Shown piece by piece: positions 1 through 37,045 of a DNA stretch of 64,000 nt (positions within the stretch are counted from its first letter, which is position 1; each line of letters starts with the position of its first letter). The stretch comes from Candidatus Omnitrophota bacterium (lineage in GTDB: Bacteria; Omnitrophota; Omnitrophia; Omnitrophales; Aquincolibacteriaceae): NCBI GenBank assembly GCA_049324575.1, contig JBMONI010000004.1, forward strand, positions 43,960 through 107,959, in the 5' to 3' direction. The notes below the pieces were generated by a model. It had not been told where the DNA came from, ran no database searches, and worked only from the letters and a program-made list of their open reading frames with translations. Both the position numbers and the translations under genes were made by a program.

Positions 1-3000
1 GCTTGATAAAAAAATACAGAGGGAACATGCTCAGACCCGTCAGCAATAAGGTTAAAAAGGGATGGGCAGCCATATTGAAGCGGTATTTGTTCCAAAGCGT
101 AAGCTCATTTCCCTCATGGAGTAATTGCCAGGCACGATCTCGGATCGAGGGCGACGGATGCGTAATCGCTTTTCGGCTCCATGACAGCCACTCACGATGC
201 CGTCGCGCGTGCTCAAGGTCCCCTGTCATCAATTGGACATAGAATGTTCCCTTTTCATCGCCCGAGCGAATCAGCTCGGCTTTAGCCAAGTTCACGATCG
301 CAGAGTTCTCATTCGCCAGAAATGCGATCAAAACCGGCTTACTACGGGGATCCCCCATCATACTCAGCGCAACAGCCGCCTGGCTTTGAAATTGCGCCAG
401 CAAATTCGGATCTCGCGCCAAGGCTCCCAGATCAAAAAACCCACCGGTTTTTTTATAGACTTTCCACAAAAAAGGCGCCATATCCGGCGTGCCCCATTTT
501 CCAAGTTCCGTTGCCGCAAAAATACGTTCGCGGGGTGTCCCCGTTTTAAATTTGTCGAGCAAAAGCTCACGCGCCTCCCGCGGATCGTTTTCAGCGATCT
601 TCGAGAAAATCTTATTCACGAGGCCGGCAAAAAATTCATCCTTTGCACCGCCCCAAGAAGGACGATCATTCCAAGCCTGGAATTCAAGATCCAAAGCTTG
701 TTTTAGAAACGGGTTGTATTCGGCGCCCGAAAAAAGATGCCTCGCTTCGACCGCTGCACCACGCACCCGCCCATCCGAGTCCTTCAGAAATTCCCGCAAA
801 CGCGTAGCGAGTTCAGGATTTTTGCGCTTCGACAGCGCGAGGATCGCAGCCGCCTTAGCCTCGATGTTGGTGGATTCCAAAAACCTGATAAAAAGGGCTT
901 CCGTGTCGGCTTCTTCGATATCAGCCAATAAACCGATCACGCGCCTCACCGCATCTTGCGGGATTTCTTTCTCAGCCAGCGCATCTTCCAAATAAGCCAT
1001 GATAGGCGCCGCAGCCGCTTCTCCTTTTGCTATCAGCGCGTTCTCCAGGATTTCGTCATCAGAACTTCGGTAATGATACTTATTGGAAAGGCATTGGCGC
1101 TGATAGATCCGCCATAACAATTCTGCGGCTTTGGGATGATCGACCTTGCTTATGAGATTCACATATTTTTTTATCTCCCAGGAATGAAATGGCTTTTTTT
1201 CCTGCAATTCAAGAAATTTTCCGTAAGCTTCCAAAAAGAGCGCCGCGGTGGCCGGATTTTGAAGTCCCGCTATCGTTTCGAAGGTCTTTTCAATATCGTT
1301 TTCCTCAGAATAGGAAAGCCCTCCTTCTTTCTTTGCCTCAAGTCGTTTCAGCACGGCGCTGAGTTGGTTCATCAAAACGGCGGTCTGATACGATTCCCCG
1401 GAATATCGGTTGGGAGTTTTTTCCCATACGCGTATCGCTAAAGCCCGGACCTCCTCATTTTCATCCTTCAAACATTGGATAAGAACCTCGAGAATCGAGG
1501 GCGGAAATTGCCCCATTGTCTCCAGGGATTCGAGCGCAAACTTCCGGTTCTGCAAACTCGAAGAGCTCGCAAGCTCGGCGATGGCAAGCGCCGCTCTTTC
1601 GTCCTGGAACTTCGACAATGCGATAGCCGCTGGCACAAAGTAGGGTTTCTCCTCATGATAAATACGGATGAGCTCGGGGATCGCGCGAGGGTCACGCATC
1701 TTTGCTAATAATTCGATGACCCTTTTTCTGGGGCGTGGATCACCCTGAAGGGAGGCGATCAATGAAGGAACGGTCGGAGCTCCCATCGAAAGCAGGGTTT
1801 CTTCAGCAAAAAGCCCGAGCTTGGGATCGTTCAGCAAACGGATGAACATCGCAACACTCTCCAACGATTTAAGTTGCCCTAAGACTTTGACAGCGAGCTC
1901 TTTGCCTTCCGCGCGGGGATGCTTCTCAGCGAGTTCGATCAGTGCGGGTACAGCCGGCTCTCCGATCTGCGAAAGGACCTGGAACAAAAGTTGATCGCAA
2001 TAAGACCGTTTTCCTGAGAGACCCAGAAAATGACGGATATGTGGGATCGCCGGCTTCCCGATCTCTCTTAAGGCATTTGCATGCCATCCGAGAAATCCGA
2101 GGTTCGAACTTTCCCGCTTCATGCCTGACGCATCTAACGTGGCTTTATCCGATCTTTCATAACGCGCCGCCATGTCGTCAAGGATATCCGGCACCGAGGC
2201 TTCTCCATGCTGCACGAGACGCGCCAAGGCTTCATTCGCGGATTTTCCATTCGAAGGCCAATTCCAAAAATCGTAGCGGGTATCCGGAAGCAATGCGAGG
2301 TCGTGGGCGATCGACTGTTTTTTCAGATCCGCTTGGTCCACCGGCTCGCCGAAGATCTTGGCCGCTTCCTCGAAACTCACCGCACGGCCCTGGACAGGTT
2401 CGGGACGAGATGCCGGCTGCTCCAGGGATGGAGGCATTGCGCCAGGCGGAGGGTTCACAACCCAAGGATATTCCCGGGCGCTTGACTCCCAAGCCGCAAA
2501 GCCCAGCACCGCGGCCAGAATCGTCCACAGCCCGACGGGTTTTCGCCAGCCTGTCCGGGCAAAGCTTTCCACAGCGGCCTGCTCGCCCGCGTTTCGGAGC
2601 TCGGAACGAGGCAAGCGTCTGTTTTTCTTACGAGTCTTGCTAACTATTTGGATTAAAGAATCAAAATCAGGAAAAAGCAATGTCACCCCTTGCCATACTT
2701 CCTTGCTCACCCAATAAGTTTCTCCAGTAGGTACATCGGTAGAACCTTGGCATTGTTTTACGTCGTCGTAAAAGCCTTCATCAATATAAACATCGTGCTT
2801 CTCAGCTTGTAACAAGGCACGCGTTAGTATCGACTTAAATTCCTTGTTGGAATTATTCGTAAAAATTGCCGGCAATAATATTTCCCTTATAAACCGTCGA
2901 TGCACTCGATGTTCTTCGGCAAGATCAGGCCAACGAATCCCCTTTGTTTCCGCCGTCCATGTTCTCTCTCCCACCTCTAATTTTTTTAACAGCGATTGAA

Positions 3001-6000
3001 TTTGCATTTCTTTGGCACGCCTGCTCAATATCGGGGGAACTCCGACTTCCAGAATGTCACAGCACGGGATCCCCGATCTAACTAATCGCATCCCCATTCC
3101 GATCGCAAACTCGAATTCCCTTAGACTTCTCGCACTCATATGCAAAATGGGAATAGCCTTTTCAGTCGCATAATCAACCGGCATATGCTTCTTTTTTAAT
3201 TCAACAAACAGCTTTTCTACCATCTCGATTTTCTTTTTTGCGTAAGCATCCCCGCACATTGCCATCGCCCGAAGCGCTCCTACATGAAAAGCAAGGAGCG
3301 ACTCCCTTTTTAGAATCTCCTTCGCAATAGCAGAAAGCTTGTTTCGCATAACAGCCCGATCGCTCTCCATGGCATCTAGAAAAACCATCAAATCCATAAT
3401 TTGATCTATGTGTCTCAAAAAATCTTGATTCTTTATGTTAATCACTTTTCCATGGAGCAGTTTTACAATCGCACGCTGTTTCACCAAGCGAATCATGTTG
3501 GGCGGAGCCCCAAATCGCCTTAAGGATTCCATGTTCTTTTCCGTGTTCAAAACTTCATTGCCAGCGAAAAGCCATCGATCTGTCAGCATCAATTTTAATG
3601 AATCCTTGCGGTTAAGTTTTTTCAAAGTTAGCAAATCCCGCGCTTCCAGTGCTGCTAGCAACCGAAAATCCTTTCCAACACACCACCGCCCAAGCTGCAA
3701 ACATGCGGAAATATAAATTTTTATCCATTTGATTACTTCTATCATCTTTAAAACAGCCCCAGCAATTAAACCAAATAATATAATTCCGCCAAGAAATATC
3801 AGTAATCCGCTCCCCAAAAGAACTCCGACCATGGAAATGGGGGCCTTTTTAAACCGAAGCTTCATTCTTTCTTTAAAAGGCAAGCTTGGCATAATGGCAT
3901 CCGCAGCGGCCGCTTGGATAACTCCTAAGTAGGGCGCCTTTGAGAACTTCGTTAGTTCCGAAAAGTTTTCAGGCGAGCGCATAGCCTTTGAAGAATTTAT
4001 GATAGCTGCTTTAACTCCGTTCGCCACGAAATCATCGTTTTCGATGATCCCAAAGAGTGTCACAATTACATCCGGATCGTCGAAATTTCCCAGTGCTTTA
4101 GCCGCCGCGGAAGCAACTCTGCTATCCTGATCGCGCAGTGCTTGTACGAGATCAGGAACCGCAGAGGGCTCATGAATACGCTCTAGCTCAAATACGGGAC
4201 TGTCAGTGAAAAATCTATGTCGATAAAATGGCTCTGCGTGAATCTGTTCTATCAAATTAGAGATTTGCGTGCTAGAAGCACGAATAGCTTCAGAAGAAGA
4301 ATTTGATGGATCATCATGGGCATTGAGACTTACCAGTGATATAACAAGACCCACTATTCCGATCATTGCAGCCCGAATTATCCTGTCAAAAACCCCACGG
4401 GCTCGCCTCGGGAAATTTTTTAATACCGTTGTCGAAGATTGCTTAAAATCAGATCGATCTCTCATTTCGGCACGCGATGAAAAAGCTTTATTGCCCAGTT
4501 TCTGCGGCAATACCAACGACCCTCTTCCTGAAATCCAATCAACTTCGCTAAGAGAATAATCCTTAAAACCACCTAGTCCTTGATCGAGATGGCGGGCGAG
4601 GATGGGATAGTCGGTGGACGCCCCCAAAGATTCGGTCAGCCCGGCGATCGCACGCAGGTGGCGCTGAACCGGGCCGTCCCCCACCCGGGTCGCCATGAAA
4701 AAGTCGGACGGCTGGCGGGTGGCCCGCGCCGGAAGGAAAGGCGTCTCGAAGCGGTACACTCCGCGCGTCATGATCTCGCGGTAATAAGCCTGGTGGACTT
4801 TGTCCGGCCCCGCGATACGCGGGGAGATCACGGCGTAGGAGATCTTTTCTTTCCTGAGAAGCGCTTTGATACGGCTCGCGTGGAATCCGCCGAACACCAG
4901 AATAGCGGAACTCTCGGCGGGATCTTTCAGGAATTCCCGGATCGGCCCTCCAAGCGCCTCGTCGCGCGCTTCGGCCGTTTCGTAGAACCGGGAGGCCGGT
5001 CCGATATTCCGCTCCCAGGCCCGCGAAAGCACGACCGTGCGCCCGGTCAGCGAAACAATGAAGTCAGCGATCGCCCGGGTATCGATCGCCTCGAGCGCTT
5101 TCCGGACGGCGCCGTACTCCTCTTGCGTGAGCTTGACATCGTTCAATTTGCCGATCAGGGATAATTCCCGGTGATAGCGAAAGATCGTCCGGTCGCGCTC
5201 ATTCCCGAGAAATCGGTGGGCGATTGCTCCCTCCATCTCGGCGGTCTCCCGGAAGATCATCGCCGAATCCAGCGCGTTCAATCGATCGGCTTGTTTGGGT
5301 TCGCGGGAATCAGCGATCGCAAGCAAAAGCGACACGGCCGGATATTGATCCGAGAACGGCTTGGCCTCAGCCTCGGGGTCTTCGCCCCGCATTAAAACGT
5401 TTTCAAGACCCCGAAGATAGGAAAGCAGAGGGATCTTCCCCTCTTCATACCGCTCTTTCATCCCGATCCACGCCTTCAGGTCTTTCGAAAAGAAGCGGTG
5501 AACAAGTCCCCGTATCTCGGTCATCAGGTCCCCGAGATCCGCCTCGATCTCCTTTTTAAAACGAGCGGAATCCCGGTAGCGCTCGATGTTCTCGCCGTAG
5601 AGCTTGAGATCGTCGACCCCGATCAGGCGCCAATGGCTGGCGCCCAAATCCGAATCGCTAAATTCTAATTCCGAAACAAATGCTGAATTCGCATGTTCTG
5701 GATCCAAAGCATGCATTGTTCCGTTTTTCGGATTTTCTTTTTTCGAAATTGTTTCGAATTTCGGGTTTCGGATTTCGTGCTTGTTCCGATTGATGTGCGC
5801 GTACTCGGCGCCGCCGATCCGGAGTTTGTCGAGAAGATAATAGGAAACCCGCTCGCGCAGGACCGGATCCTTGATGAATCCGAAAAATTTCTCGGTGGGC
5901 ACCGGGCCCTGATACCCTTCCTCAAAGACCGTGCGGATGCCTTTCTCGCGCACTAAATGGTCGATCAGGCCTGCGATATGCTCCTGGGCTTCCAGCGAAT

Positions 6001-6271: not shown

Positions 6272-6424
6272 ATTCCCCTCTTTTCGTGTTCTTTGTGAAA
6301 AACAGAATCCACCGAAAAGTTACCCGTTTTTTTAGTGATTACAAGAAGCGGACACAAAAAAACCATGATTTTTCAGAAATTTTTTGAGTAGTCGTTAAAA
6401 AGGTTTGAAAAACTTTTTCGTCAA
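6272..6424 (-). promoter_or_regulatory. AT-rich intergenic region, putative promoter/5' UTR of the 1..6271 gene
   Basis: Marked drop in GC between the terminator hairpins and the ATG at 6271. No confident -35/-10 assignment. Confidence 0.25.
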
Positions 6425-6490
6425 AAACAAAACTGCGGCCATGCAGTCCGCCTACTTCTGTAGGGCAGGTTTAAACCTGCCCTACAGGTT
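6425..6490 (-). terminator. Putative intrinsic terminator of the giant gene: 30-nt perfect palindrome followed by a second hairpin and a T-run
   Basis: CTGTAGGGCAGGTTTAAACCTGCCCTACAG at 6458..6487 lies 28-57 nt downstream of the TAA at 6517-6515. The minus strand then reads CTGCATGGCCGCAGTTTTGTTTTTG (5-bp stem, T-run). Confidence 0.5.
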
Positions 6491-6514
6491 TTGAGGAACC
6501 GACTCGAATCCCGA

Positions 6515-30500: not shown

Positions 30501-33500
30501 CCCGCCACGGCGTCGATCTGTCTCTGCAAAGTCTCGGCCGCCGTCCCCAGCATCAAAAGTTCGATCGGATCGAAGGCCATCCCCAGGAAGATCCCTTTGG
30601 CCGGATCGTCAAACGTTTTTGCCCGGCGAGTCGCATCGACGATCCCCTGGCGGAAAAGCGCTTCCCGGAAATCGGCCGAACGGCCTTCGCCCATCTGGCG
30701 AAGCATCATGCTCATCAAGGGATTCTGGATCAGGAGGGTGGTGATCCGTTTCAGGTCTTTCCGCTCGCCGCGGGATAGTTTTTTGAGAATGGCGTAATAG
30801 TCGAGCTCGGCCGCGTCGCTCAGCTCTTGATCGAGCGTCCTTCCTTCTTTTTTCTGCTCCTTGTGGATCGCGGCGATCCGGGCCCGCTGTAAAAGTTCAT
30901 CGCGGTAGGGCTCCACGATCGGCGCCACGATCGGATCGATCGTGGTCGATGCAAAGGTGTTCACAAGCCCAAGCGCTCCGCTGTAGACCAGTTTCGCCTC
31001 GAGGGGCGTGGGCCGGCCCAGCATCTGTTCCTGCTGTCCCAGCATTTCCAGGGTCGCTTGGTCCCCTTCCACCAGTTTGACGAGCGGAGAAAGGATCGGT
31101 GCTCCCGCCGCGTCATCGAGGCCTTCGGCACCGCCCACGGCGCCCCCGATCTCATAGGTCACGAACCAAAGACCGGCCGCCGTAATAAGGACCGAAGCCC
31201 AGAATTCGGGGCTGGTGATCACCCGGTTAAAGACCGCTTTCCGCGCATTGCGATAAAAACGGTTCAGGTTCGACGGATCAAAAAGCGCCGGCAAGATCAA
31301 ACCGGCCTGGGCTTTCTTGGAAATTTTTATCTTGGGAATCTCCGCGTCGATCCTCGCCAAAAGGAATTCGCGGTCCCGCGCCTTGAGATGAAGCGGGGCC
31401 TTGCGCAGCCGGCTTTGGGGCACGAGATAGCGGCGGATTCCTTCGAGGGCGAGGCGTTTTTGCACCGCCGAAAGCCCGGATCCGCGGGCCAAGATGGCAT
31501 CAAGCAATTGATGAACACCCGTATGGGTCGCGCTCGTAAGGTGAAATTTTTTGATATCGATCCCAAGTTTGCTCAGACTAAAATTGAGCATGCGGGCCAT
31601 TTCGGTCCGCACCCCCTGATCGACCTGCGTTTGCAGATTCAAAAAGAAGGCAAGAAAGATAGGGCTGGCAACGCCGCCGATCGAAAGATTGAGCGGGATG
31701 TTGTGCATCATGCCGAATTCGCCGACCTGGATCAGCGCCCCCTGGTCGACCAGGTTCCACGACCCGCCGAGATGCGACCATTCGAGGAAGTGATGGATGA
31801 GAGGATGCTGACCGGCCGAAAGTTCGACCAAAGCCGTATCGGTCGGATGATACCCGAGGAACACCAAAAGCCCGAAACTCACGAACGAGATCAAAAGCAG
31901 GGTCGCGGCTTTTTTGACGAACGCCTCTTCGGTGAGATCGCCCCGCGCGCGGGCCTGCATGAGGATCACCATCCGGAAGAGCACGAACGCAAAATAGGCC
32001 ACGCTGAAAAGGATCAGGGACTTCCCCACCAGCATAAGCGCAAGCGACGAAACCCCCGAATAAATGAACAAACGCAAGCGTTTGGCAACGAACGTCGCGG
32101 CGCCGGTGACGTAAAACGCGTGGGAGGCCGTCGCGGCCCAGTATCGCGCGCGCTCGGTGCTGAGATCGATCTTCTGCTCGGCGGGGATGGCACGGACCTC
32201 GTTGGCGATCCACTGCACTTCCTGGTCCGTAAGCCATCGTTTTTGGTATGCACCCGTCCAGAAATAATCGATCGAGACGCGGAAGAAATTGAAGATGAAA
32301 GAATCGAACAGATGCCATAAGGCTTTAAAAGGATCGATGACGGCTTTCGCCAGCAACGTAATGACCGAGATCCCGGGGTCCCGCATTTTCAAAAGCACGA
32401 TCGAAGAAAGGGCGTGGACCACATAGAAGCCGATCAGCATGCCGTACAAAATGACCGCCGCATTCAGCGTCACGACCCCGAGGGCTCCCAAGATCAGGAC
32501 GGCGGCGAGACCAGCCCCGATCTCCACCACGCTTCGCACCACCGATTCCACTTTACTTTGGGCCATCGCCCCTTTGGCTTGGCCGAGGATCGTGTTCGCC
32601 TCGACATACTTCCAGTAACTTTTGGCCCGGAGACGGATCCGCGCCAATTCGCGTTTGGCAGGGTCCGTGATCCCATTCAGCGTATCCGTCACCCCTCGGT
32701 CTTCCCAGGTCCGGTCTGTATCAAGCCCCGCACTGATCCCGAGCACCCCTTGGCCTTTTTTGATCCCCTGCCAGCGCTCGCTGTCGGGCGAAGCCTCTTC
32801 GCCGGGACGCGTTTCGACAAGATCCGTGTAGGTCACCCGGGTCTCATTGATCGCCCTGATCGCGGTCCACCCCAGGACGATGACGAGAACTGCCCAAAAC
32901 CAAATTCCGAATACCGAATAGGGCCAGGCCACCGCGGTCATTTGCCCGGTAAGAATCCCGGCATGTGAGATCAGGAAATTCGCGATCATTCCCGGGATCA
33001 CGCCATAAAAGACGATCCGTCCCGCATAGCGCTGGGCAAAAATACGGAAACCGTTCCGCACCTGCTCGACGACGCCCGGCTTTTTCACCGCAGGCGCAGG
33101 AGCGGGTTTTTGGGCGGCCGTAGCTTTCGCCGGACGGGACGGTGCCGGCTGAACTGCCGCAGGCGCGGGTTTTTTAGCGGTCCAGGCGCTCCAACGGCTC
33201 TTGATCGACTGCGCGAACGCCCCCAAAGCGCTCTGGCTTCGCTGCCAACCTCGGACCGTCAGTGCCCCAAGCGCGGCCGCAACGCTCCGCACCTTCTGCC
33301 ATGCTACCCCCCACCCTTTCCCGATCACCCTCCAAGCCTTCTGAATACCCTGCCAACCTCCCGCCATCTGCTTCAAAACCGCTTGCCCGGCATTCCGGAT
33401 CCCATCCAAAGGTTTTTTAGCGGCCACGGCTGGAGCGGGCGCTCCGGTGATCGAGGAACTGGGCGCTTGGGGAAGCGGCGGCTGCGCCCCCGGCACACTC

Positions 33501-36499
33501 GGCGCTGGCGGGGCCGGAACAACCGCAAGAAGTGTCTTCAGCCGTTGGCTCAATCCCGCGACTTGAGTTTGGTTGACTTTGATGTCGGCCGCAACAATTC
33601 CGGGGCTTTCGAGCCGGGCCAGGATCTTCTCAAAAAGAGGTCTTTCCGCTCCCTCGACCGGCTCCTTGCTATCTTGTTTCTTTTTAATAAGCGTCGTCAG
33701 AAGTCCGTGGTTCTTTTGACTCGCAAGCATCGGCCCGGCCCAAATCCGGCGGAGACGGCCCAGAAGTTTCTGGATCGGCGGCTCGTGTCCCGCGAACCAT
33801 TCGGCATCGCGGTTCGGCAATTCTCCGATGCGATCTTCCAGCGCCACGAAAAGACCGGCAAGGCTTTTCCATTGTTCATAAGGCTCACTGCCGTCAATCC
33901 CTGTGATCCCTTGTTCCAAATATTGCAGATCCTTTTCGATCGCCTGCAGTTCGGCATCCAGCGGATGGAGAGCGGGCTGGGCCGGTTGGGAAGCAGGCGT
34001 TGCAGGCTTCTTTTTCGAAGGCGCACGTTGCGCTTTTTCGGAAGGCGTCGCGGACTCTTTCTTTTTTGCGCGGACCTCGCTTCGGATCGTGGCCCCTTCA
34101 ACCCTCGCACGCGCCTGACCGATCAAATACTCCGCAAGCGTATTGCCTTTCATTCGGTCGCGCTGACCGAAAAGATCGATAGCCCCGAGAAGGATCCTCT
34201 GTTGCTCTGCCGTGATCCCGGGCTGTGTCAGGAGACTCACCTGGTCGAGAACGCCTTGGGCAAGGGCACTTGCAGCAGCCGCCTGATCCACACCGCGCCC
34301 CATGGCCTGCTCCACTTTGTCCGAATCAACAATACCGAATGCAACCCTTTGATTTCCGGGAAGATCGATCTCCTGAAGAAGTGATTGAGAGTCCAGGCTC
34401 AATTCCGTCCGGGCCTGAGCGCCGGCGGGAAGCCGGGCAAGAACCAGGCTGGCATCCTCGGTCAGCCGGACCGCCAAAATCTTTTTTCCACCCGCTCGCC
34501 GGGTCTTCAGTTCATCATAATGGCTAATGGCCCCGACCATCCTCCGGATATCCGTCGCCAAGGCGTTCCCGGCAAATGCCTGTCTGGCCAGTTCCAGATT
34601 CAACGGACCGCTCGCGGTCCCGAAAGGAAGATGCGCATCAAATACGCTTTCGGCAGCCATCCAAAGGACCATGGAGAGGTTCAGGGCCTGTTGAGGGTTT
34701 TTCAGCATCCAGTCGAGAAGTTCCTGACGAGTGGCTAGCAGATGGGTTTCGCCAGTCAGGATCGAAACAAAATCCCTTGCCTCCGCACGCGGGACCAAAG
34801 CCTTGCGCGCGGCCAATTGGAACCGCGGATCGCTCAAAGTGTTTTGCCCCAGGGAGGCGATCCCGCGAAGCAGGATCTCCTCGACTTTTAGGGGTTTCTC
34901 CGCCAGGGCGTCCTCGTAGCGGCGGGTCGTTTTCCGTTCGTCGATCATTTTCGTGATCGCGGGCGTGACGACCCAGTAGGAATATCCGTGCTCGCGTAGG
35001 TAGCGTTCGATCCCCGGCGTGTGGAAACCGCCGGTGACGATCGCCGAAATAGGTTCTGCGCCGACCTCGGCCTTTTGAACCGCTTTTTCGATCAAGATCC
35101 GGTCACGCGCCAGAGCGGCCGCATAGAACCGCTCGACACGCGTCAGATCCTGATCGAGGATCTCCAATTGGGACGGCAATCCGTAGGAGAAACGATGTTG
35201 ATCTAAAAGCGGTGTCAAAAGGGAGGTCAGTTGCGCAGAAACGAAATCGCCGCGGTGCGCGTAATAGTACTCGGCGTCCTGCACCGTCAGCGTGAATTCG
35301 AGCATTTTTCGGGCCACATCGAGCACGCGGTAAAGGCGGTCCAGCGCGCGCGAGGCCTCGTCGGTAAAAAGTTTTTCTTTCACAAGCCCTTCGAGCTTCT
35401 CGATGTCCTCAAAGACCTCGGCGCCGACGCTTTTCTGAAGCCGGTGATATTCGAGATAACCGAGCACTTCCCGGTAAAGCTCCGCATCCCGGACTTTGAA
35501 TGCGCGGGGCCCCGCCAGGAGGCCGCGGATCTCGGTCTCGAGATAGCCGTAATAGATCTCCTGCTTCATCCGGCCGGTCTTGTACTGCGCGGTATTAGCG
35601 AGATAGCGCGACAGACGGTCGCGACCCAGGTCCCCTTTCAGGTTTTTCATCGCTTCTTCGGTCCGCACCTCGACCTCGGAAGCCTTCATCGTCCGTTCGA
35701 TCGCAAGCAAGCGCGTAAGCGCCGCGAGCCCCGGCATCCCCTCAAGGGGAAGGGAGAATTTTTGAGCGTAGGAGCCGAGAAGGTCCGCGTACGCGACCAG
35801 CCGGTGTCCGTTCGTCTGGAAATCAGTGCGGGTTTCGTGCAATTTGCGGAGGTCTTCCGAAAACACAAACCGTGCGAGCCCGTTCAGGACCCTCTCGACC
35901 CCGGCGAGCAGCTCAAGATCGCGCTCTTTGAAGCTCATCGCGTCGAGATAGGCCTGCCGGTTCTCCTCGTACTTGGCGGAGTCCTCCACGCCGTAAAGCA
36001 CAAGGTCCGGTCGATCCACGATCGCAAGATATTCGGGCCCGGTCAGGCGCGCTTCCTTGAGGAAATAATCGGCCACCGTCTGTTTGGCGTTTCGATCCGG
36101 GAAACCGCGAAAGATATCGGTATAGAGTTCGCCGTCCGCGCCTTCGAGATTCACGAGTTTGAGACCGTAATTCGCGGCGAAATGATCGAGGATGCGCGCG
36201 ATATTATGCTGGGCTTCTTCGTTGGCGTGCGCGTCCTGGATATGGATAAACACGTGGTCGGGACGGCCTTGAAAGACTGTTTTGACCTTTCCGAATTCGG
36301 ACGGCAGTTGAAGACGATGGATCAGGTCTTTGGACGGACCCGCAAGTGCGGCCCCGGCGTTTTCGGAAGCCGCTGGACGGTTTTGCGAAAGGCCGATCCC
36401 ATCCGCCCAGATAACATTCGTTGTGATGAAGAAGAAAGTGGTGAGAGAAGCAATGAAGCGAAGCCAAGGTCTAAATGTGGGTCTTTGCCACTCTAACAT
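6515..36499 (-). CDS. Giant 9,994-aa predicted polytopic membrane protein with an N-terminal signal anchor, ChaN/Tiki-like N-terminal domain, Pro/Ala-rich linkers, coiled-coil Lys/Ala/Glu repeats and several clusters of TM helices; function unknown
   Basis: Single uninterrupted ORF in the track. ATG at 36499 follows a ~400-bp AT-rich spacer. N-terminus MLEWQRPTFRPWLRFIASLTTFFFITTNVIWA is hydrophobic. Dense hydrophobic helices occur around aa ~1180-1700, ~6200-6400 and ~7300-9400. It shares its N-terminal domain with the 1..6271 gene. No catalytic motif recognised by eye. Confidence 0.8.
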   Translation of the reverse strand: MLEWQRPTFRPWLRFIASLTTFFFITTNVIWADGIGLSQNRPAASENAGAALAGPSKDLIHRLQLPSEFGKVKTVFQGRPDHVFIHIQDAHANEEAQHNIARILDHFAANYGLKLVNLEGADGELYTDIFRGFPDRNAKQTVADYFLKEARLTGPEYLAIVDRPDLVLYGVEDSAKYEENRQAYLDAMSFKERDLELLAGVERVLNGLARFVFSEDLRKLHETRTDFQTNGHRLVAYADLLGSYAQKFSLPLEGMPGLAALTRLLAIERTMKASEVEVRTEEAMKNLKGDLGRDRLSRYLANTAQYKTGRMKQEIYYGYLETEIRGLLAGPRAFKVRDAELYREVLGYLEYHRLQKSVGAEVFEDIEKLEGLVKEKLFTDEASRALDRLYRVLDVARKMLEFTLTVQDAEYYYAHRGDFVSAQLTSLLTPLLDQHRFSYGLPSQLEILDQDLTRVERFYAAALARDRILIEKAVQKAEVGAEPISAIVTGGFHTPGIERYLREHGYSYWVVTPAITKMIDERKTTRRYEDALAEKPLKVEEILLRGIASLGQNTLSDPRFQLAARKALVPRAEARDFVSILTGETHLLATRQELLDWMLKNPQQALNLSMVLWMAAESVFDAHLPFGTASGPLNLELARQAFAGNALATDIRRMVGAISHYDELKTRRAGGKKILAVRLTEDASLVLARLPAGAQARTELSLDSQSLLQEIDLPGNQRVAFGIVDSDKVEQAMGRGVDQAAAASALAQGVLDQVSLLTQPGITAEQQRILLGAIDLFGQRDRMKGNTLAEYLIGQARARVEGATIRSEVRAKKKESATPSEKAQRAPSKKKPATPASQPAQPALHPLDAELQAIEKDLQYLEQGITGIDGSEPYEQWKSLAGLFVALEDRIGELPNRDAEWFAGHEPPIQKLLGRLRRIWAGPMLASQKNHGLLTTLIKKKQDSKEPVEGAERPLFEKILARLESPGIVAADIKVNQTQVAGLSQRLKTLLAVVPAPPAPSVPGAQPPLPQAPSSSITGAPAPAVAAKKPLDGIRNAGQAVLKQMAGGWQGIQKAWRVIGKGWGVAWQKVRSVAAALGALTVRGWQRSQSALGAFAQSIKSRWSAWTAKKPAPAAVQPAPSRPAKATAAQKPAPAPAVKKPGVVEQVRNGFRIFAQRYAGRIVFYGVIPGMIANFLISHAGILTGQMTAVAWPYSVFGIWFWAVLVIVLGWTAIRAINETRVTYTDLVETRPGEEASPDSERWQGIKKGQGVLGISAGLDTDRTWEDRGVTDTLNGITDPAKRELARIRLRAKSYWKYVEANTILGQAKGAMAQSKVESVVRSVVEIGAGLAAVLILGALGVVTLNAAVILYGMLIGFYVVHALSSIVLLKMRDPGISVITLLAKAVIDPFKALWHLFDSFIFNFFRVSIDYFWTGAYQKRWLTDQEVQWIANEVRAIPAEQKIDLSTERARYWAATASHAFYVTGAATFVAKRLRLFIYSGVSSLALMLVGKSLILFSVAYFAFVLFRMVILMQARARGDLTEEAFVKKAATLLLISFVSFGLLVFLGYHPTDTALVELSAGQHPLIHHFLEWSHLGGSWNLVDQGALIQVGEFGMMHNIPLNLSIGGVASPIFLAFFLNLQTQVDQGVRTEMARMLNFSLSKLGIDIKKFHLTSATHTGVHQLLDAILARGSGLSAVQKRLALEGIRRYLVPQSRLRKAPLHLKARDREFLLARIDAEIPKIKISKKAQAGLILPALFDPSNLNRFYRNARKAVFNRVITSPEFWASVLITAAGLWFVTYEIGGAVGGAEGLDDAAGAPILSPLVKLVEGDQATLEMLGQQEQMLGRPTPLEAKLVYSGALGLVNTFASTTIDPIVAPIVEPYRDELLQRARIAAIHKEQKKEGRTLDQELSDAAELDYYAILKKLSRGERKDLKRITTLLIQNPLMSMMLRQMGEGRSADFREALFRQGIVDATRRAKTFDDPAKGIFLGMAFDPIELLMLGTAAETLQRQIDAVAGDVIHGKIPLEEGVQKARQLAADRIAQAARQAREEGAAPPPPAESPETEAKPEPEQPQPEPQAPEKVTGRFLGADGALPIQGVIPIGGWMWLENVTLASGTKLSLLDLKSRADLDSAIEVTLEKSADSSDTVAADQARRLYDFLNAVRSIQDRTGPLSEAGQKIVTEGQTPGLKDLLAIDSGVAALAFYRQYIDNDDAGMTAALSEAAAGRAADAVKAAIDGYLNGAKTLAETLALLKDVPAETPKPAPMPEEKKEETPPQEPKKEGKPAAIEARVLPLVEMTATVGELQTARVEIFRLLQAKKVEEARARFQGLAQRIADAKASTDHFVRDLEARIAAGDLTPEERSNLARGLLNAYALRKDLRPDWTFPGLIDQLGKLFGASIPPYDGLSPAAVLEARLKAIEEKMSEEDKKAFDIDLLWMRQFIENEKRKEPPPAALPGVKVGEKQAPVTAPAPTAAMVLLDQLSNLPKTMTEEQIRDIQEKLAAAGPQYKGILERGPKGNLEPMTYNDGTAGTRFWAAVDAFKADHAEIADFKFTRTISPGDRGPQVEQFFTWLANVPGFEILRELNGSRWVPRFITGYGNEEGAPWISPTIKLGDSKYSLIPEQVMSEDQAAASNFGTIAVNPALFDAWNGAEVFILLPNVYGKLELHKLTVADRGRSVQPGQFDVYNGPSLYEIAAPESTDFADQGIKGRIRSVFSKVPKDSWSQIPRTDEFFDGMARKTKFMTEYQGIFDQYLARAAKKDTEARTWFSDQLRELLERAYPSRQNRIAAEVAYALAEIDLYLKNRDVESRFIAITIASNFFKEQRKPMIFDPIDNDIRAAYKPYLPYGRTTHFLAKGIPTQGTEPAFARYVDNSPLEIVIRNFQKTNGLPVTGVIDQRTFDQIEERFASARQRRAMEEGVRLTEDIVRGPFVEIGTQDWLEPETGGIGKSQFLALVEAEMAKLKAGVLGDMQSVTTMNENIRTRMDGARSGILELFRKHYPSYVKSKVPGSDEMQIDRLIRLVPEHVRKLTGEILAAESEEARMAVAPLGVSLMNEVWPHPAEASQPAPAPDAGPAPAAPQGEAAARTEPGPVAAGGEDLPSLAELGQFIEAGALPPEWAARTASAAPKPAAEPERTAPPQPEPQPQPAAQPPAAEPPMPQAQPKAEPKPQPQPVPPVEPQPEAKAPEGLEGILAQFNADRIDLAQAIAQVEKLYGITVPASVGEGLLRQQTVLSLAVKAIRQEASLPDPEKEDKVIAIRNLETALILQDTKLQETYQKLKDANRKTRSLTWAFQEAAAGYELLAEVLTGELLGMPKVKAVDGRYGSRTDFLIKFGISRELLESRYDPISRRMDRATQKAEELQARGQPLTADDMIGVVAEYFPSRYVDEAGQALPAKRDADKAKIEPLIQAKAPVAEIIAAAIIEAAIPVTAKEKAAPPPAAKPPAVVAEPITPALRFDLRQILLGVRGDLPSAVPAVRDRLQQEYPDRNFTDEQILAGIQSFYEEHLHMQGGGFTSGELVVWGKAPSAVPGRPGKFEEYGDGSGQTNARYDAKRPVIAPYASLLFADAGPRSVVRNLMNLSTLYSSSTGEYGFFDSVDLNSNQAATRYALDNKGFEMAKALGILTGGKVHQYYAADPEVARGLEGLHIALAVADAQALDGREPNQEEKAFLHGQVVKGWGYYRAATEGSPIPADHIELENGTSKVAVYAGITGTGLYLVNLVGVRDHDGAQPAGQKVLQAGEYDRRAAAALEALEKMQRSEDGLFFQNYDRKALRPSPAEDNKEKVSSVDNFNLADSLRVFAQANQGTPLGERAQKILDKMQLAKFYDPKTRQIRHGFYPHRQNEWIASGKTVLHYGYTFEGLSSLVPLVGSGKVPAEVLKTITPTTWGGGALEQAGWSVFLDPNDARLGDLSKAYRTSAANQMQNGMSQVLTAADRAIDLILKPSAVPMEPAPEEPQLPPEPKPEFKPEDVGHGREVLAGLAALLKNFPEAGPVQAGAEVLELLKAQLAGQAAVTVGSLNNGAEQLLISAVEGRLFYEGNPLARELQARRDLSGGIVQALFRNLRDAHPGIEPWEIVFSHLMKNQSQDPKVQQMRTSIQDRHKEDPNWSETSAAWFRDAAVQAIQDVQQAGRLTDEQRALLEKILGEVIDDKTSARTIDAIEPPAQPQPEPRRVSLDSFLQRVVRHAAATYPTAMRLADAKGRETALRQWKLQVGLKGAAVPASVSAFVRLEGPVWDPSQGPRQRLGDVEVDFTDVELQKGIVFLTNAAAGLINGMLRSRSVVDSLVELEKELADLPEVARQKIADERFGGRNVESMLRQIRLERQNAQAAYVADRDRLKMLAAYLPDEAVDLEAAILDPAFYNDPAQKDTKIQEALARALPTSMRDQHPGEAREGGLHYQVALLRYQREQLQDVVKKSRERFRVRFGIELDFSLNPVAAIMNLKLPVEFSKDRPMPPIYWDIREQRHAREYAEEIRQLETQVRELAIEEAELGQRLEHAAVQWEKAKKLLRDQANYYRSGALSDALTTLPADTTRGGALSDSLPATAREVLNILGEFADLQKNLQGARNLLTQLNLAAVDLDDRLSKDQETAFKPSALPPRTADVNFVDLEERDGLSGVFLHMDARNRTGRHLTFGGERESMLQYEEVERLAGFLALRGPGEIRGRLRELMKSEQKIAKERESLRDPAAIREKTRELAALAKAKRALIYGMLDAVMPRVFQHELENTDRALQQLARKYDVGQKPEQIARELVSAIQARLNRTRGAREQIELDLQAAQNFLVRRDLLLEEQGQLRGKKATEGFAGRTTVRDISYNDQAILQKVVPQAFIDQKGKFRILQMDFEFHVGEDSVPEIMLIYQKLKAHREGEVLAERGGMVQALELYQVIAADRQRIATLKAQRDAVVKTQGMNRREMDAKPERAAQYGISLQHQDIQIGALDRSISNLTEEMNRTVRRYLRLMNNGYLPQDYDDTDPGNDYYKKFMGQVDRWNEQHEGWDGEPAMRQRIQQMFNRRFPGESFSAGSEESWGKRKLAVALSQMGFAYRNRGIDFIVIPAYGDAPYFAMDGLFAQEQAQGAEQKSFLGILWSWFDGGKKYRVKVEKATSITEGHAETMGYFDLVREQAVQREQMGRTLENTEKQREAANKKIGEIAGYTDPQGVRHGGELEQLENRKKTGAGSDRNVLELRIGLLEADLEELRDFGHVRDLAWRLMVTGMAAKPPQASRGAKTAGWLNDRATTPFDLDTAKAYGLVDRFADDQVAAHRWLYHRWHAGRSWVERLTDRMWLQQSVSLMPFNMDLALQISEPLELLFYNLQPGIDRLQADQHGFLNAAERGQQIALGRNMFVDLRTHAAILDLNTYRFSRNSALRDALAGPSTPDDTTKRIADIAEESGLAVDTQAKVVDNARQNFLRWLGFDPDRELRLPKMPLAGQDVLRLLADSSDKVLSVLERDNILNAHLKGTEANELRSRLTGIRRWIHSHLSINTSTLLYGEVAVNLVDAQASIQHAIAALDAKLSSMQTDDVRLKEAYRILLQYQVLIRAASVYAFNLPIALDNADFLRARTSGFILGDMVPGKYIQREGEWYEASVRALLAGGDVEKAANYLEALLQGKLAVTRGPVAVPYQPSKEFTEEYARLAEQAGQLGAIAERQTRAAESTPGTAVEKKPMPEPFDKQEVADGLSNKMVMPVLPKDVVSDAQVPVAKVELANALGVLAQRLFGVQLPQAFDLAAADPANETYAGEFRFSLMTPHTVRVVFEVTKKDGTKENRILDLTTDIELDKDTARKLFDGVKKIKVDPDGAVSFFADDAATVPYEFKKVAITVTEKEGTMRVTGIEGRPDEEITRAVTIRTPHETPITVTAPKGGKSIVIGIQPSDPDIQMDVLTMPVLVRVLESLGMTTEIKEAQLLVAIQYMNYLLRPGSPFAAAYADISPYIDAISKDYDLSLPLGTFLETLLSYRENTGLRMDTASTTDVKVDMRKLGLVLVYAYRFLANNPDAVPGFDPAATPMSELENSAAVEMILLKYALMEMNPDTRKNSMQPTQEDLEILKKFNFGANASEWQYQMNYPKWREIHPGGTDAEYFAHLMRVFVKQNANNVWERLFFRPLSYDDLNKKLQQLRPIAEKINGGQPLNLDRQKNIAELTMALFESYGLHFFHENESQRLKAYSTFLDMVAALMAQKAVLYDPLYPADRFNYAGILRAQEYRFLLADLRTAKALLQQAEAGLEQATPSERAMWSEKGRKANLEIAALEAKKSDLEEELRASHFKGDSKASIQYEMLNLLVERYNLERSPELKTLAAKYGITDPFRIISDLLHTVQEKLDQTKKAGQDAAAIEQDMEQARKILREMALHPVKKIEEIRAADILTLTADEQGEVVLRTAKFLSQAPTIRTILLQEGLYEALDVYDPKHHAAIRSAYEEKERMGLDWDEFRVYIRIMADVQRSNEARARSAEPEAAFWIKTPDGRSVPTFGRFAAVGWAAEAGLFALGVSRPKRDPFSTIAQAELSAAARFISGDADSWRYAGVGEKEAWKKLTIQQRQQKYSEWMGIAEKLRGEAERLYGELKSSDPDDMGLLLSLAMSVDGFVGWANADPSEREYWESLSPEQKIKIAQLILRTAARIKEPLSTILGGLDIKSPDGRDNGILLTLAKNLLMVSGREKQKLSSIRAAALRMGVDLIKEETEGRGGVRIPPIYPDPESLITVDSPKNEEKFDAYVADYTKLLEKTQDPAFQKAVHAVLGILLPGSDAKTMNWREPARLSFLLSFAEQCGLHGWDSPIAKNYPQIMKLLLDRNEASNALNDFLGKLQISADYRGEMQAMFPEMRVYLNYLAGEWTGETPKVDYQKIAHYYELMGIIDYYAGFVTDPAKPEVLVKRIEEMSEMFDAVAQLFHVDGKSDFDAIHDALQQMYVTLTVPKIEIAIGSEKYGITNHYELQRVMFLMQKHQEYLDINRKPPENYQDWEQKTTAKFKSKFVEGFLNDVQKKIQTHGGDIRGWFATYKDILALMFAEGQSMVDMELGEITGKKAEKDFGRELREDRGVDFGEDHSSISRQFFSIYKLEGMASWWLDQTDSRTAQGEVMTFDEIEQAIRSVPDLRRLISEHIPEVAYTAADIYFLVRMSLPKRIYENYFAQCKKMLEYSRKSLGRSLSLAELNEQFFAPGYFLSDWVLASRGGLSALLTALGIPDADIPEFRMRMGITNRMPGRNGAALDARLQKIDEGFAPKLKAAQAKRTEPDQVTAEEEALLQEKDAAKARILGDFLGRYFRSLGPNEDQRTILALGPQLGRILVPGSEEFNYWVAIRERLDQQHQGKPAKAAGELAQLAIVGSVATEGIRNVLAGGKPDYRKGQFLQDDQNLKTYLKHWLFTRELDPQLTDEDQKMPLNDFILKWSRRLYWNRSAFRDPQDLIQFIVERHPQVKTDTPEFREVLFLIMQDTHDFVAEASRSFQIKLDPAAIASLIVGQRFSAEAGEKSLLERARELEIAVTRYFVENFTEEETQEQHDDSAVIGVDWKARRFVDELLASEGFKDALPSKVLEKFYWAITDRSLKKTVARQIVADLKFILQQYQDHGFVQRNAGAAFDEKLINAVLELISKTRNLGLHEAGLIENPDLKTDPEMQKETYRKTKIDSENSMKTWLWQQSMRWVQTIYLTTPRETVREEKGGRSASAETTKKAEGAAQADPWLDGVENFRKKLRERILSTGLKIAPAQAVKNEEGETAQEVQRPEEVKHEEPLASHDLARRAWEYDKYGKGEENRGAFHVAVGSIFLGITGVMALLSLIIHWLTSRHRRYREGTVRTTSIEDLRRALRKLRFSGTAEEIASKRAQIEEVLDRLADPKLTRVARTQALAQLKAHLQRSEIRAALDPLEAFTKNVEEYSRQIGERRPLVKKFTPKGIALWILGMGGLYALSYYGTVLYASAPLLGLLLTLGAPVTAWIYYGLRIRHYKHSADESIIKAKMSLHLGNMLYFGTIALLLGVVFFLGMIIPDFSLIAPWYAAFYVVLFGFLSHTVMQVPLDKTVSEKKMSAVLGPPAPELDADQKRELEEFEKFIAGDRQQFLQETAAAAQRRSDRAPPPSNVQGVPRDKRVLMTVITGLPDMDTFRKTVMSNIQATGEANPGRNISLAIYETGYQGPALLMDQIIDVEVTNQAEVKKGRFARFNLFHRGALKTIKNISKKYGSMVDQLRFLGDGSRYPEVQSEKYVGRNLVVSETRFMGISLPPMPILAGITAFFVGPVVYWALMALGASLAWSVTLTVLFAAFILVALKTLFESGSTTLMVQDKEVRKAVTKYLEKYAQEASPGETFEAFLIRMRAAAQETLKKAQEALKKAEEALGKAQEAPSAQEAATASQEELAKAQDALKKAQKALKKAQEEANVPDKLDLLFARGIELSPASVATNARLDVVFANLAELGWVHVDNPGVEAEHRMTDAEFRDRRNIFIAGNPKKAERYLNGTGTDISIPEVQDVYAYRYQQAFNKLKQKAQEAATKDPKDAAARQRLAVIDSLVLRFEYEKQVALDTDDPNRLKYAFTMDEKNQIGMEWRKALDWFATKYLQIQNPDRMSMSDLQNAIQRELRSRRDEFEITDAQIGSVGELMIEMNEAVFSIQKSLHEMLRRPGYALGQPVYYMSDHLRTLFADQVHKAGIIGEFFANAKWVISSAQTDPSGKFIVDLHGWLHGYKHEYQKVKAAFLQGSILGALFGSSLGMLLIVAVGGSSLLLGAGLGAFMGYVFGGGILGAYEMRHYGGAFATLFFNQLSHDYEEGFQSGSLVVRTAIVIEQVVKSLQEMVARASQRWFRGTLPWYVMVLLGPGGSSTDRNNIALGLKMYLSSLLFFAFLVNGFIGVGSLGIHARLADLPSLMSFTNRSIAELIVQYFGIPVDPIGTAIVIVAVLLVVILLKNARYRQIKAEEKYQKLLARKKAMEEAREKRGGAEDAETAEPSERAEVRLSLDEEIEALDEEIEEARAQTKFLNHLWAALKSDLPHHVIPMAAYGVVFALLLGLAIPPFWKPVGAVVAVFSFVIFFIYRAFSGTIPSISLRDKIAQFFMDQLYLNNFVIEAKLAVNNFLHNWAEGIHPLDATKPSWKTTIRDTLADKGQIGKGLLGVVIAVAPILVSVLWISGAYAPYIFMISIGIAVVLAIMTLHRLSNRFVAVGWLALTVAITAYLAALGLILFTPALAHLWAVILPGLQQLGWAPLTAFLTSHPVVSQWLFMLWAGFTFGSMLIKSVASFVKIRPEPSPWGIMTAVGGNTSFLTLKASFHLMTPSYWMALGTILSILLLSPQVEVINWMILLIGSWSFGPMMMWFSAKPRDWDIHSRIDLSKAKTLEAMAALAKKELPEREASEAAMVEARVTAMKGMVAAYETALGTGERKAIDKASLPYFELMRKLQGSPVRPFSIKNFATALAILVGGSAILSAPVIFVLFHSIFGLSAGMAIVATLGGILLITAVGTALLTGFMYLWTSFERKASSIQEPRYPHFWQNLGAPAVKWWNKFRNFRIGPITRKASFWVSYWESVKHDFSQYRQEQIIKPKKPKEIDIARVSLHRIQTGWLHLGSAIGFFLIGAALISGSVYALGIMQQWALPGIAGEVGRSFGNIFALFVSGLILTSMAGRVLHATTKFLEIFFEIRDSFSSKNKTSEFMDHFEPNLFEYVNDREQLKGVLARISFWQKALKALGIGLGVAASGVAFGLPIFAAGILYVVSAHHWIPLVALIFLVLAQTGNLVAFYLTYQKDKRDFPKEDKEDKEDKKSQIPPATATGSPKSSEALQGQLPAQPQSSVAPATGQRPSTTEAKKASVPAQQPKGKKKPGPRAELREEMPAGLGDALTSTTEMRVVQMLAQANAANEALRQAVVASGVAQGGVTVIDWQTGWSVDQRTELNDRLASLGEKDRLIVRATSDKLLMLQGEIRDARVAFVNIAQPVEAILAEALAEQGAVTERRVYAMKATVEKNTGLLLTAAVPIEGEIIVVTDEDLSLGGANVIQLTVEQMIAQKFEMAQIVAQSA
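7288..7316 (-). repeat. 9-bp x3 coding microsatellite (atcttcttt) inside the giant gene
   Basis: It encodes EDKEDKEDK in the giant protein. Confidence 0.7.
11413..11592 (-). repeat. Coding tandem repeat (~21-bp units, about 8 copies) inside the giant gene
   Basis: cttcttgggccttcttcagcg-like units. They encode ...AQETLKKAQEALKKAEEALGKAQEAPSAQEA...AKAQDALKKAQKALKKAQEEA in a coiled-coil-like heptad pattern. Confidence 0.7.
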
Positions 36500-36978: not shown

Positions 36979-37008
36979 ATCCTCGTGGAATAATCCGGCA
37001 TGAAACGC

Positions 37009-37045
37009 GGGGTATTATACACAAATCCCCCGCCTTGACTACGCT
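37009..37045 (-). promoter_or_regulatory. Possible sigma70-like promoter for tRNA-Ala (perfect TATAAT -10; weak -35)
   Basis: The minus strand reads ...GTAGTCAAGGCGGGGGATTTGTGTATAATACCCCG... about 35 nt upstream of the mature tRNA 5' end. The -35 element is poor. Confidence 0.25.

Follow-up and report, generated by a model that had tools for sequence, protein, structure and literature searches.

A Tiki-like head domain and an RSExR boundary motif in two long modular proteins of the Omnitrophota

The giant proteins of the Omnitrophota are a recognised puzzle as regards their manufacture, their destination and the question whether each functions as one undivided chain. The described types include the Archaeovorin type, which exceeds 30,000 amino acids (aa) and combines SecA_DEAD with glycosyltransferase, methyltransferase, glycoside hydrolase, peptidase and NUDIX domains, and the Dockerin type, with dockerin domains and TSP3 repeats (West-Roberts et al. 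2023). Giant proteins of this phylum carry either a signal peptide and transmembrane (TM) segments or a signal peptide only, and N-terminal C39 or S8 peptidases have been proposed to cut the chains that bear them (West-Roberts et al. 2023; Nielsen & Lui 2026). In a published DeepTMHMM analysis, signal peptides were found in about half of the Omnitrophota proteins of at least 10 thousand amino acids (kaa). According to the two main giant-gene papers, few domains can be recognised in the N-terminal regions, and there is still a substantial Pfam-dark fraction. Here we describe two genes, G and A, which are adjacent on the minus strand of a 64,000-nucleotide (nt) stretch of DNA from a Candidatus Omnitrophota bacterium (contig JBMONI010000004.1; hereafter the window, to which all coordinates refer). 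The features of both genes given below lie on the minus strand. Both proteins begin with a signal-like segment followed by a shared domain of ~450–500 aa, termed the head.

G (9,994 aa) and A fall below the size classes of those papers (>30 kaa and ≥10 kaa), and G, which lacks SecA_DEAD, dockerin and TSP3, belongs to neither the Archaeovorin nor the Dockerin type. The bodies behind the heads are mosaics of the same kind as in the giant proteins (sugar-nucleotide enzymes, methyltransferases, NUDIX, HAD, HEAT and glycosidases). Neither West-Roberts et al. 2023 nor Nielsen & Lui 2026 mentions a Tiki/TraB/ChaN-like head, the motif RSExR, cysteine depletion, or tandem or paralogous giant genes. We consider it highly probable that G and A represent a family defined by a signal-like segment, a Tiki-type head with a catalytic pattern, diverse cysteine-poor bodies and, in the G-like and A-like clades, RSExR cassettes. 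Three of these features seem to offer new handles on the puzzle, namely the uncurated head family with its hydrolase fold, a pentapeptide cassette-boundary motif in two clades, and the exclusion of cysteine. Together they make the processing of giant proteins, and its agent, directly testable.

The TIKI superfamily, with which the head is compared, includes Tiki1/2, TraB/PrgY/GumN, ChaN, EreA–C, Bcr135/136, RRSP of MARTX, the C-domain of PMT and HopBA1. Like the head, the domain of Tiki, ChaN, PrgY and GumN comes after a signal sequence. In PrgY/TraB an N-terminal extracytoplasmic domain of TIKI type stands ahead of membrane-spanning segments, an order also seen in G and A; PrgY/TraB have ~250–400 aa and no further modules. 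The substrate of PrgY/TraB is a small peptide; the fold is that of the head, without a match at the sequence level. RRSP and PMT are, like the head, parts of very large multi-module proteins.

The head domain and the TIKI superfamily

The head spans aa ~58–530 of G (34910–36328) and aa ~60–500 of A (4772–6094). Residues 14–486 of A align with residues 9–515 of G at 23% identity (BLASTP with composition adjustment, E = 3e-17), and a hidden Markov model of the head, built from database homologues, matches both proteins (730 bits for G and 422 bits for A). A preliminary description of the window, made from the sequence alone, had proposed that the two N-termini are related; these values establish homology rather than a similarity of composition, and the motifs listed there prove to be the invariant residues of the family. 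The same description was right that a common head carries different bodies, BLASTP finding no other significant similarity between A and G beyond the heads. With no more than 23% identity between the two heads, which fall into different clades, the pair is not the product of a recent duplication.

The modelled head has a central parallel β-sheet flanked by helices, as in the solved members of the TIKI superfamily. Its Tiki/TraB/ChaN/Ere-like α/β core is split by a helical insert of ~250–300 aa, and the A head, of the A-type clade, has the same fold as that of G. An additional insertion of ~50 aa (aa 163–212; 5636–5785) occurs only in A within alignment A1; it is hydrophilic, with a predicted local distance difference test score (pLDDT) below 50, that is, low model confidence, for residues 167–205.

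The order and spacing of the putative catalytic residues are those of the superfamily: acid-x-His, Glu (+28), Arg and His (+28/29). The published set of RRSP comprises E3900-x-H3902, E3930 (+28), the basic residue R4001 and H4030 (R4001 + 29), and in Bcr135 residues H85 and E113 are likewise 28 residues apart. In G, the counterpart of the RRSP E-x-H lies in motif 1, H86-I-Q-D89-A-H91 (36227–36244), followed by E119 (H91 + 28; 36143–36145), by the conserved basic residue R465 (H493 − 28; 35105–35107) and by motif 2, G490-G-F-H493 (35021–35032). The set in A consists of Q87-D88-A-H90 (6002–6013), E118 (H90 + 28; 5918–5920), R436 (H464 − 28; 4964–4966) and G461-G-F-H464 (4880–4891). Escherichia coli YbaP, annotated as a TraB protein, presents the same order of elements (GSIH41, E67, R228/R232-D and GALH252). 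Both G and A therefore hold the TIKI set of two histidines, two acidic residues and a basic residue, as judged by residue order and spacing and not by three-dimensional superposition of side chains.

The catalytic residues are invariant in 83 of 83 heads from genome loci. For HxQDAH this invariance is circular, because HxQDAH was the pattern by which that set was retrieved. In a set that does not depend on the pattern, the catalytic residues are likewise invariant in 136 of 136 cluster representatives (Q88 and H91 among them), with the exception of D89 (134/136). E119, R465, G490, G491 and H493 are invariant in both sets, and position 492 is Phe in 82/83 and 132/136 heads and Tyr in the others. 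The A-type alignments, of 58 and 37 sequences, show D88, A89 and H90 to be invariant, as are E118, R436 and the second motif. This constellation, unchanged across every clade sampled, is thus the signature of an active site.

At the level of sequence, the head shows no significant similarity to the Pfam families of the superfamily, PF01963 (TraB_PrgY_gumN), PF04187 (ChaN) and PF05139 (erythromycin esterase), nor to its NCBIfam models or PDB sequences. The best hint from Pfam is a sub-threshold match to PF04187 (E = 0.029) in 2 of 21 members, which in P0019 covers GG[FY]H, and a Foldseek search of the head against the PDB returned no significant match. The head further differs from the described members in having Asp in place of the first Glu, in the helical insert within its core, and in its N-terminal place on proteins of 0.5 to ~10 kaa. 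Of the preliminary suggestion of a Tiki/TraB-like domain, the fold thus stands and sequence-level membership does not. On the basis of fold and active-site pattern, and not of a sequence match, the head is filed as a putative, highly divergent branch of the TIKI superfamily. It would be an active hydrolase and, by analogy with Tiki and RRSP, most likely an endopeptidase.

The head family is large. An exhaustive profile search over 1.84 billion cluster representatives gave at least 10,209 head-bearing representatives at E ≤ 1e-3 and 7,065 at E ≤ 1e-30. In size the family equals or exceeds many curated ones, yet it has no curated model, and it would extend the Tiki/TraB superfamily by a large bacterial branch. 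Among the best 150 profile matches the head is always N-terminal, starting within the first ~70 residues of proteins of 413–7,853 aa. A pattern scan of species-representative genomes yielded 560 head loci, nearly all labelled Omnitrophota; the homologues of the head are Omnitrophota proteins, many of which end at contig ends.

More than 90% of the heads are preceded by a positively charged and then hydrophobic stretch, with a net charge of ~+3 and a charge-free hydrophobic run of 12–18 aa. In G, this signal-peptide-like or signal-anchor segment comprises aa 1–33, MLEWQRPTFRPWLRFIASLTTFFFITTNVIWAD (36401–36499), and shows the charge-then-hydrophobic pattern conserved across heads. In A it comprises aa 1–48 (6128–6271), with seven Lys or Arg residues, then TIAAFVLLTFTAL, then ASQA. 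These segments suggest that the head proteins are exported through Sec.

Three clades were distinguished. The relatives in the genome scan do not exceed 49% identity; the heads of the syntenic orthologues of G, which have 7,000–7,900 aa and are present in many independent assemblies, are 44–49% identical to that of G, and their bodies barely align with the G body. Heads of the A-type clade are 33–49% identical to A and 21–27% to G-like heads, on proteins of 1.2–3.6 kaa. The bodies of this clade contain radical SAM domains, NAD-dependent epimerases, ROK kinases, PEP-utilising domains, NDK and NUDIX, and further HAD domains, methyltransferases, sigma-70 regions, glycosyltransferases, HEAT and WD40. 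HEAT modules are one among many interchangeable body cassettes of the head family. The third clade (122 proteins among P0001–P0290) keeps the invariant head residues. In 28 of 105 third-clade bodies, HE..HI (HExxH, zincin-like) occurs once per protein, which suggests a conserved candidate metallopeptidase module in the body. In locus L001 (10001–17067), two heads stand alone (called lengths 496 and 477 aa; 506 and 486 codons from stop to stop), one on either side of a 1,344-aa protein without a Pfam match. Hence the head also occurs as a small protein of its own.

The RSExR motif and cysteine content

The pentapeptide RSExR was first noticed in the consensus of the A-type alignment. In 292 head-bearing proteins (716,906 aa), RSE[LVMAI]R was observed 515 times against 4.6 expected, a 112-fold enrichment, and RSExR is by far the top match in an unbiased scan of all gapped 5-mers. 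RAExR is enriched ~6-fold (5.9) across the family; KSExR, RSExK, RTExR and RSDxR are not enriched. As controls, 25,681 aa of neighbouring genes contain no RSExR, and 131,928 aa of other open reading frames (ORFs) from the same loci contain one. A repeat at the level of DNA was ruled out, since the motif is encoded with the full range of six Arg and six Ser codons; RSExR is under protein-level selection.

The motif lies between modules. Its first copy is typically found 100–140 aa past GGFH, the median spacing between copies is 357 aa, and only one copy occurs inside a head. Small residues precede it and an acidic tract follows. In three domain-rich proteins, none of 25 copies lies inside a Pfam domain, against ~5 expected, and copies closely bracket modules (for example RSEAR / Response_reg / RSEAR, and ROK / RSEMR). 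Of the ends of local homology (high-scoring segment pairs) shared by different proteins, 46% fall no more than 15 aa from RSExR, against 7.6% for random positions. RSExR also provides a practical rule for splitting giant proteins into modules for structure prediction.

The motif is unevenly distributed over the clades, being present in 19 of 23 long G-like bodies, in 102 of 110 A-like bodies and in 6 of 85 bodies of the third clade. No alternative boundary motif was found in the third clade, only the HExxH that occurs once per protein. G itself holds two copies of RSExR and three of RAExR (for R[SA]E[LVMAI]R, 5 against 0.19 expected, P = 2e-6): RAEAR just past the head (aa 571–575; 34775–34789), RSEVR, of the family-wide form (aa 806–810; 34070–34084), RSEIR (aa 7845–7849; 12953–12967), RAEVR (aa 8931–8935; 9695–9709) and RAELR (aa 9801–9805; 7085–7099). 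A holds one of each (2 against 0.054 expected, P = 0.0014). RAEMR (aa 600–604; 4460–4474) stands where A-type proteins carry the first RSExR past the head, its R, E and R being conserved at ≥90% in alignment A3, and RSELR is found at aa 1222–1226 (2594–2608). In the full-text literature, RSExR appears only as an unrelated motif of PL7 alginate lyases; identity with that catalytic motif was ruled out, the copies described here being located in linkers, many per protein and outside domains. As a boundary motif, RSExR is apparently undescribed.

Cysteine is almost absent from G, with 2 Cys in 9,994 aa (0.02%), against ~1% in neighbouring genes, and several G relatives of 5–7.5 kaa have none. The median content of A-type bodies is 0.05%, with zero in 50 of 110. 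The head of A is free of Cys, and its body has 0.59% (9 Cys over 1,530 aa), only a little less than the ~1% of the neighbours, so that of the two proteins only G is clearly Cys-poor. With their signal-like N-termini, heads and motif copies above chance, G and A both fit the head-bearing RSExR cassette family; in Cys content only G clearly does.

The window also encodes, on the minus strand, three ORFs with signal peptides that are extremely Cys-rich (51508–55134, 56740–59373 and 61108–61977). Their Cys counts are, respectively, 156 in 1,208 aa, 106 in 877 aa and 24 in 289 aa. Repeats of the C-x6-C type (for example DSDCPSGQYCK) occur in the two large ones, and one has a match to DUF7107. These ORFs alternate with two Wzy_C O-antigen-ligase-like genes, and the 50–52 kb region has a low guanine-cytosine content (0.446). 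Because signal-peptide proteins of the same window contain 12–13% Cys, the avoidance of Cys is not general to exported proteins here but specific to the head family. Cys depletion of head proteins seems to be new, and the exclusion of Cys would fit translocation in an unfolded state.

Proposed processing of the chain and rival explanations

The best single explanation of these observations, whose likelihood we place a little short of even, is that G and A are exported modular polyproteins with a head hydrolase that cuts at RSExR. G and A would be members of two head clades in a very large, almost wholly Omnitrophota superfamily of long modular proteins, exported through Sec. Acting as an endopeptidase, the head would process RSExR linkers within its own chain, and perhaps also those of neighbouring family members, with G and A, for example, acting on each other. 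Once the chain has been exported, processing would set free or activate the modules of the body, among them a peptidoglycan-binding motif and a glucoamylase-like glycosidase in G, and HEAT scaffolds in A. The G–A tandem would reflect a general clustering tendency of head genes. Cleavage at RSExR by the head is, taken separately, a tentative proposal. Polyproteins, MARTX and large clostridial toxins likewise unite, in one chain, a protease-like domain and modules separated by a short linker motif, a resemblance in workings only. The head differs in having the TIKI fold and not a chymotrypsin-like or CPD fold, and in its N-terminal position after a Sec-type signal; cleavage in head proteins is presumptive, and no inositol-phosphate or host-activation logic is known for them.

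Several observations weigh against this explanation. No sequence bridge leads from the head to the TIKI superfamily: the head has no match in Pfam or NCBIfam at E < 0.01, single-sequence searches of the PDB were non-significant and a profile search of it gave no match at E ≤ 10, and the hhalign comparison with E. coli YbaP was likewise non-significant (probability 0.18). The link between head and motif is correlative, and cleavage is a presumed event. The third clade keeps the catalytic residues mostly without RSExR (6/85), and the function of the head therefore cannot be RSExR cleavage alone. The motif copies in G are few for a protein of its size. The cofactor-dependent, cytoplasm-type enzymes of many A-type bodies, which follow the head with no intervening TM segment, are hard to reconcile with simple export; 70 of 114 A-type proteins lack a hydrophobic segment past the head, so that head and enzymes would share a compartment. 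The same compartment puzzle is visible in the giant-protein literature. In G as in A, the first hydrophobic segment past the head is also preceded by positive charges, a poor fit to a periplasmic head; the hydropathy and positive-inside topologies of G and A are contradictory and were not used for conclusions.

The likeliest alternative, although on balance a doubtful one, is that the head is an active hydrolase of Tiki/Ere type directed at external targets (envelope proteins of prey or host, esters or signalling peptides), like RRSP, Tiki, PrgY and the erythromycin esterases, while RSExR is read by another factor, such as a kexin-like or S8 protease, a docking partner or a modification enzyme. 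The evidence from fold and catalytic residues is the same as for the self-processing polyprotein, and the third clade, with catalytic residues and almost no RSExR, shows that head function and motif are separable. The peptidoglycan-binding motif and glycosidase-like module of G fit the published cell-wall-attack model for Omnitrophota giant proteins, on others of which S8 and C39 peptidases occur. However, the head is the most conserved part of the proteins, always N-terminal after the signal segment and joined to endlessly variable bodies, which resembles a biogenesis or processing module more than it does one of many effectors. In addition, the first motif stands at a set distance (100–140 aa) past GGFH, and the motif is essentially confined to head-bearing proteins. 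A non-enzymatic head is distinctly improbable. It would be a trafficking, anchoring or ligand-binding domain, such as a ChaN-like cofactor binder or a secretion handle similar to those of two-partner secretion, that steers long proteins to a dedicated export route or retains them at the envelope. Some TIKI-fold proteins are indeed non-catalytic, as ChaN binds haem and PMT lacks the 2His/2Glu set, and a conserved N-terminal module with variable cargo is a general design of polymorphic secreted proteins. AcrB-type pump pairs directly upstream of the head genes of one subfamily would also suit such a role. Non-catalytic PMT, however, has lost the very residues (D/E-x-H, Glu, Arg and His) that are invariant in every head clade sampled, and no partner gene is conserved near head genes in general.

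To the preliminary description, the two genes suggested a functional system (an envelope-spanning machine, a contact apparatus or a scaffold). On such a model, G and A would be a dedicated, co-evolving two-gene system with cooperating heads. The genes are adjacent, co-directional and 243 nt apart, and tandem heads recur elsewhere (six loci, and 23 of 62 with a long upstream ORF). The head is nevertheless generic, being found in at least 10,209 clusters, and its partners vary; the A body has no relatives in the retrieved loci or the metagenome scan, and at a syntenic locus the head genes are different ones (L004 versus L087). Terminator-like hairpins and a separate ribosome-binding site for A lie between the two genes, and most of the head genes examined have no second visible head nearby, which makes a dedicated system very unlikely and leaves this part of the description without support. 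Least credible of all is an artefact, by which the giant ORF or the pair would be misassembled, or G would be no real gene. Frameshifts or assembly errors do occur, the orthologue being called as two overlapping ORFs in L003, L004, L039, L086 and L087. Against this stand an open frame of 29,985 nt that has its start codon and ribosome-binding site and encodes a conserved head, the syntenic orthologues of 7,000–7,900 aa in independent assemblies, the lack of internal repeats and the near-absence of Cys along the whole length. Beyond these alternatives, the self-processing polyprotein could be extended to G-like and A-like proteins that are secreted and cut by the head at RSExR into dozens of modules; these, or else the uncut chain, might be translocated unfolded and act inside prey or host as metabolic-takeover effectors of ultra-small epibionts. 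The cofactor-dependent, cytoplasm-type modules and nearly Cys-free chains make unfolded translocation out of the cell and action in prey or host conceivable, and the predator Velamenicoccus archaeovorus has been reported to pass RNA into the cells of its prey; we regard this extension as unlikely.

Genes G and A and their surroundings

G (6515–36499) is one uninterrupted ORF of 29,985 nt, starting at an ATG with AGAGGGA upstream and a promoter-like TTGACT-17-TAGACT farther upstream. Behind the signal-like segment and head, the protein comprises two hydrophobic clusters and a long soluble middle. The first hydrophobic (TM) cluster (aa ~1162–1619; 31643–33016) was delineated by a Kyte-Doolittle scan alone, so that the number and orientation of its helices are uncertain. 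The second, polytopic cluster (aa ~7751–9708; 7376–13249) has ~22 segments by the same scan and no Pfam match. The preliminary view of G as a giant polytopic body accordingly holds for the ~30 hydrophobic segments, which, however, form two clusters flanking a soluble stretch of ~6,000 aa. No internal repeats were found in G. Its Pfam content is limited to a peptidoglycan-binding-type motif and a sub-threshold glucoamylase, with SecA_DEAD, dockerin and TSP3 absent at E < 0.01. The former is a partial match to PG_binding_1 (PF01471; aa 2862–2887, 27839–27916; E = 3.9e-6, 27.4 bits against a cut-off of 23). The latter, a glucoamylase-like module of glycoside-hydrolase type (aa ~3504–3902; 24794–25990), scores 19.5 bits with PF10091 and is homologous to a separate 780-aa ORF in L053 (BLASTP E = 9e-8 and 2e-7), which carries PF10091 at E = 1.3e-24.

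A (2–6271) has its C-terminus outside the window. The minus-strand frame is open from 6319 to 2 (2,106 codons), and A starts at the ATG at 6271, with the ribosome-binding site GAAAAGAGGGG upstream. As the preliminary description had stated, the gene has no stop within the window and its frame no break, giving at least 2,090 aa with a signal-like segment, a Tiki-like head, hydrophobic segments and HEAT repeats. The body had been described there as a single TM helix plus PBS-lyase/HEAT repeats. The HEAT repeats are borne out by HEAT_2 (PF13646; whole-protein E = 3.8e-45, in five stretches), of which the first match covers aa 693–747 (4031–4195). The single TM helix is not, there being at least two strongly hydrophobic segments (aa 631–649, 4325–4381, and aa 823–841, 3749–3805) and a further one at the end truncated by the window. 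A C-terminal HEAT-repeat region (aa ~1459–1990; 302–1897) matches HEAT_2, HEAT_PBS, HEAT_EZ and ERAP1_C-like models of Pfam. A resembles the PBS-lyase HEAT proteins CpcE, CpcF and NblB in its many HEAT_2/HEAT_PBS repeats, but fails the NCBIfam equivalog models of the lyases (27–35 bits against cut-offs of 220–600). With scores so far below the cut-offs, the repeats count as HEAT scaffolds of a generic kind rather than as bilin lyases, and the PBS-lyase part of the description does not go beyond generic HEAT. A search of metagenomes with the C-terminal 800 aa of A gave just two weak HEAT-like matches, and no relatives of the A body were found in 88 loci or in the metagenome scan. The A body is close to an orphan.

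The spacer between G and A (243 nt) contains a terminator-like element (6430–6489; minus strand; fold energy −40.1 kcal/mol, z = −4.2), in which a perfect 13-bp hairpin is followed by a hairpin with a T-run. The perfect inverted repeat, CTGTAGGGCAGGT-TTAA-ACCTGCCCTACAG (6460–6489), lies ~25 nt past the stop codon of G and ahead of the second hairpin. Given these hairpins, A may have its own transcription start.

Upstream of G are genes for an alpha/beta hydrolase, an acyl-CoA-synthetase-like protein, an enoyl-CoA hydratase, cNMP-patatin, YajQ, SPOR, GNAT and AMMECR1 proteins and two Wzy_C-type ligases. Near head genes in general, no conserved partner was found, and the genes around them have ordinary metabolic or housekeeping roles. 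A second head can be seen in L001, L009, L031, L038, L069 and L087, and in 23 of 62 loci the nearest gene on the upstream side of the head gene is a co-directional ORF of 1,000 aa or more; most of the head genes examined have no second visible head adjoining. No HEAT-type partners were found downstream of G orthologues, and the bodies of other tandem heads have no Pfam match or carry a UDP-glucose dehydrogenase. Across the 88 loci and the metagenome scan, G and A do not recur as a fixed pair, as they would in a dedicated two-gene system. Because the identity of the partner is not conserved and the A body is nearly an orphan, the tandem seems to be a matter of clustering habit or of a variable hot spot and not a dedicated machine.

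The only recurrent neighbour of head genes is absent from the window. It is a pair of AcrB-type resistance-nodulation-division (RND) pump genes (~1,030–1,100 aa; E = 1e-82 to AcrB/MexB-type PDB entries), directly upstream of the head genes of one subfamily in L034, L059, L075 and L080, with partial ORFs in L047, L049 and L056; the heads at those loci are 30–45% identical to that of G.

In several loci the head gene is followed by a long ORF without a head (L003, 12045–15527; L004, from 13882 onward; L039, 12591–21608; L086, 17443–24249; L087, 18640–25806). These overlap the end of the head gene by 13–60 nt in the annotated cases, and those of L003, L039 and L087 contain RSExR. They look like frame-shifted continuations of one gene, through sequencing error, a real frameshift or recoding.

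The block at 36500–43300 of the window (cNMP-patatin / thiolase or enoyl-CoA hydratase / AMP-binding / alpha-beta-hydrolase) recurs in synteny in several Omnitrophota genomes. It is followed by G-type head genes in L003 and L004; in L087 the genes that follow are one of A type, one of 2,388 aa and a head gene of 5,110 aa, and Fic and HTH genes are inserted. That one syntenic block precedes differing head genes suggests a variable hot spot.

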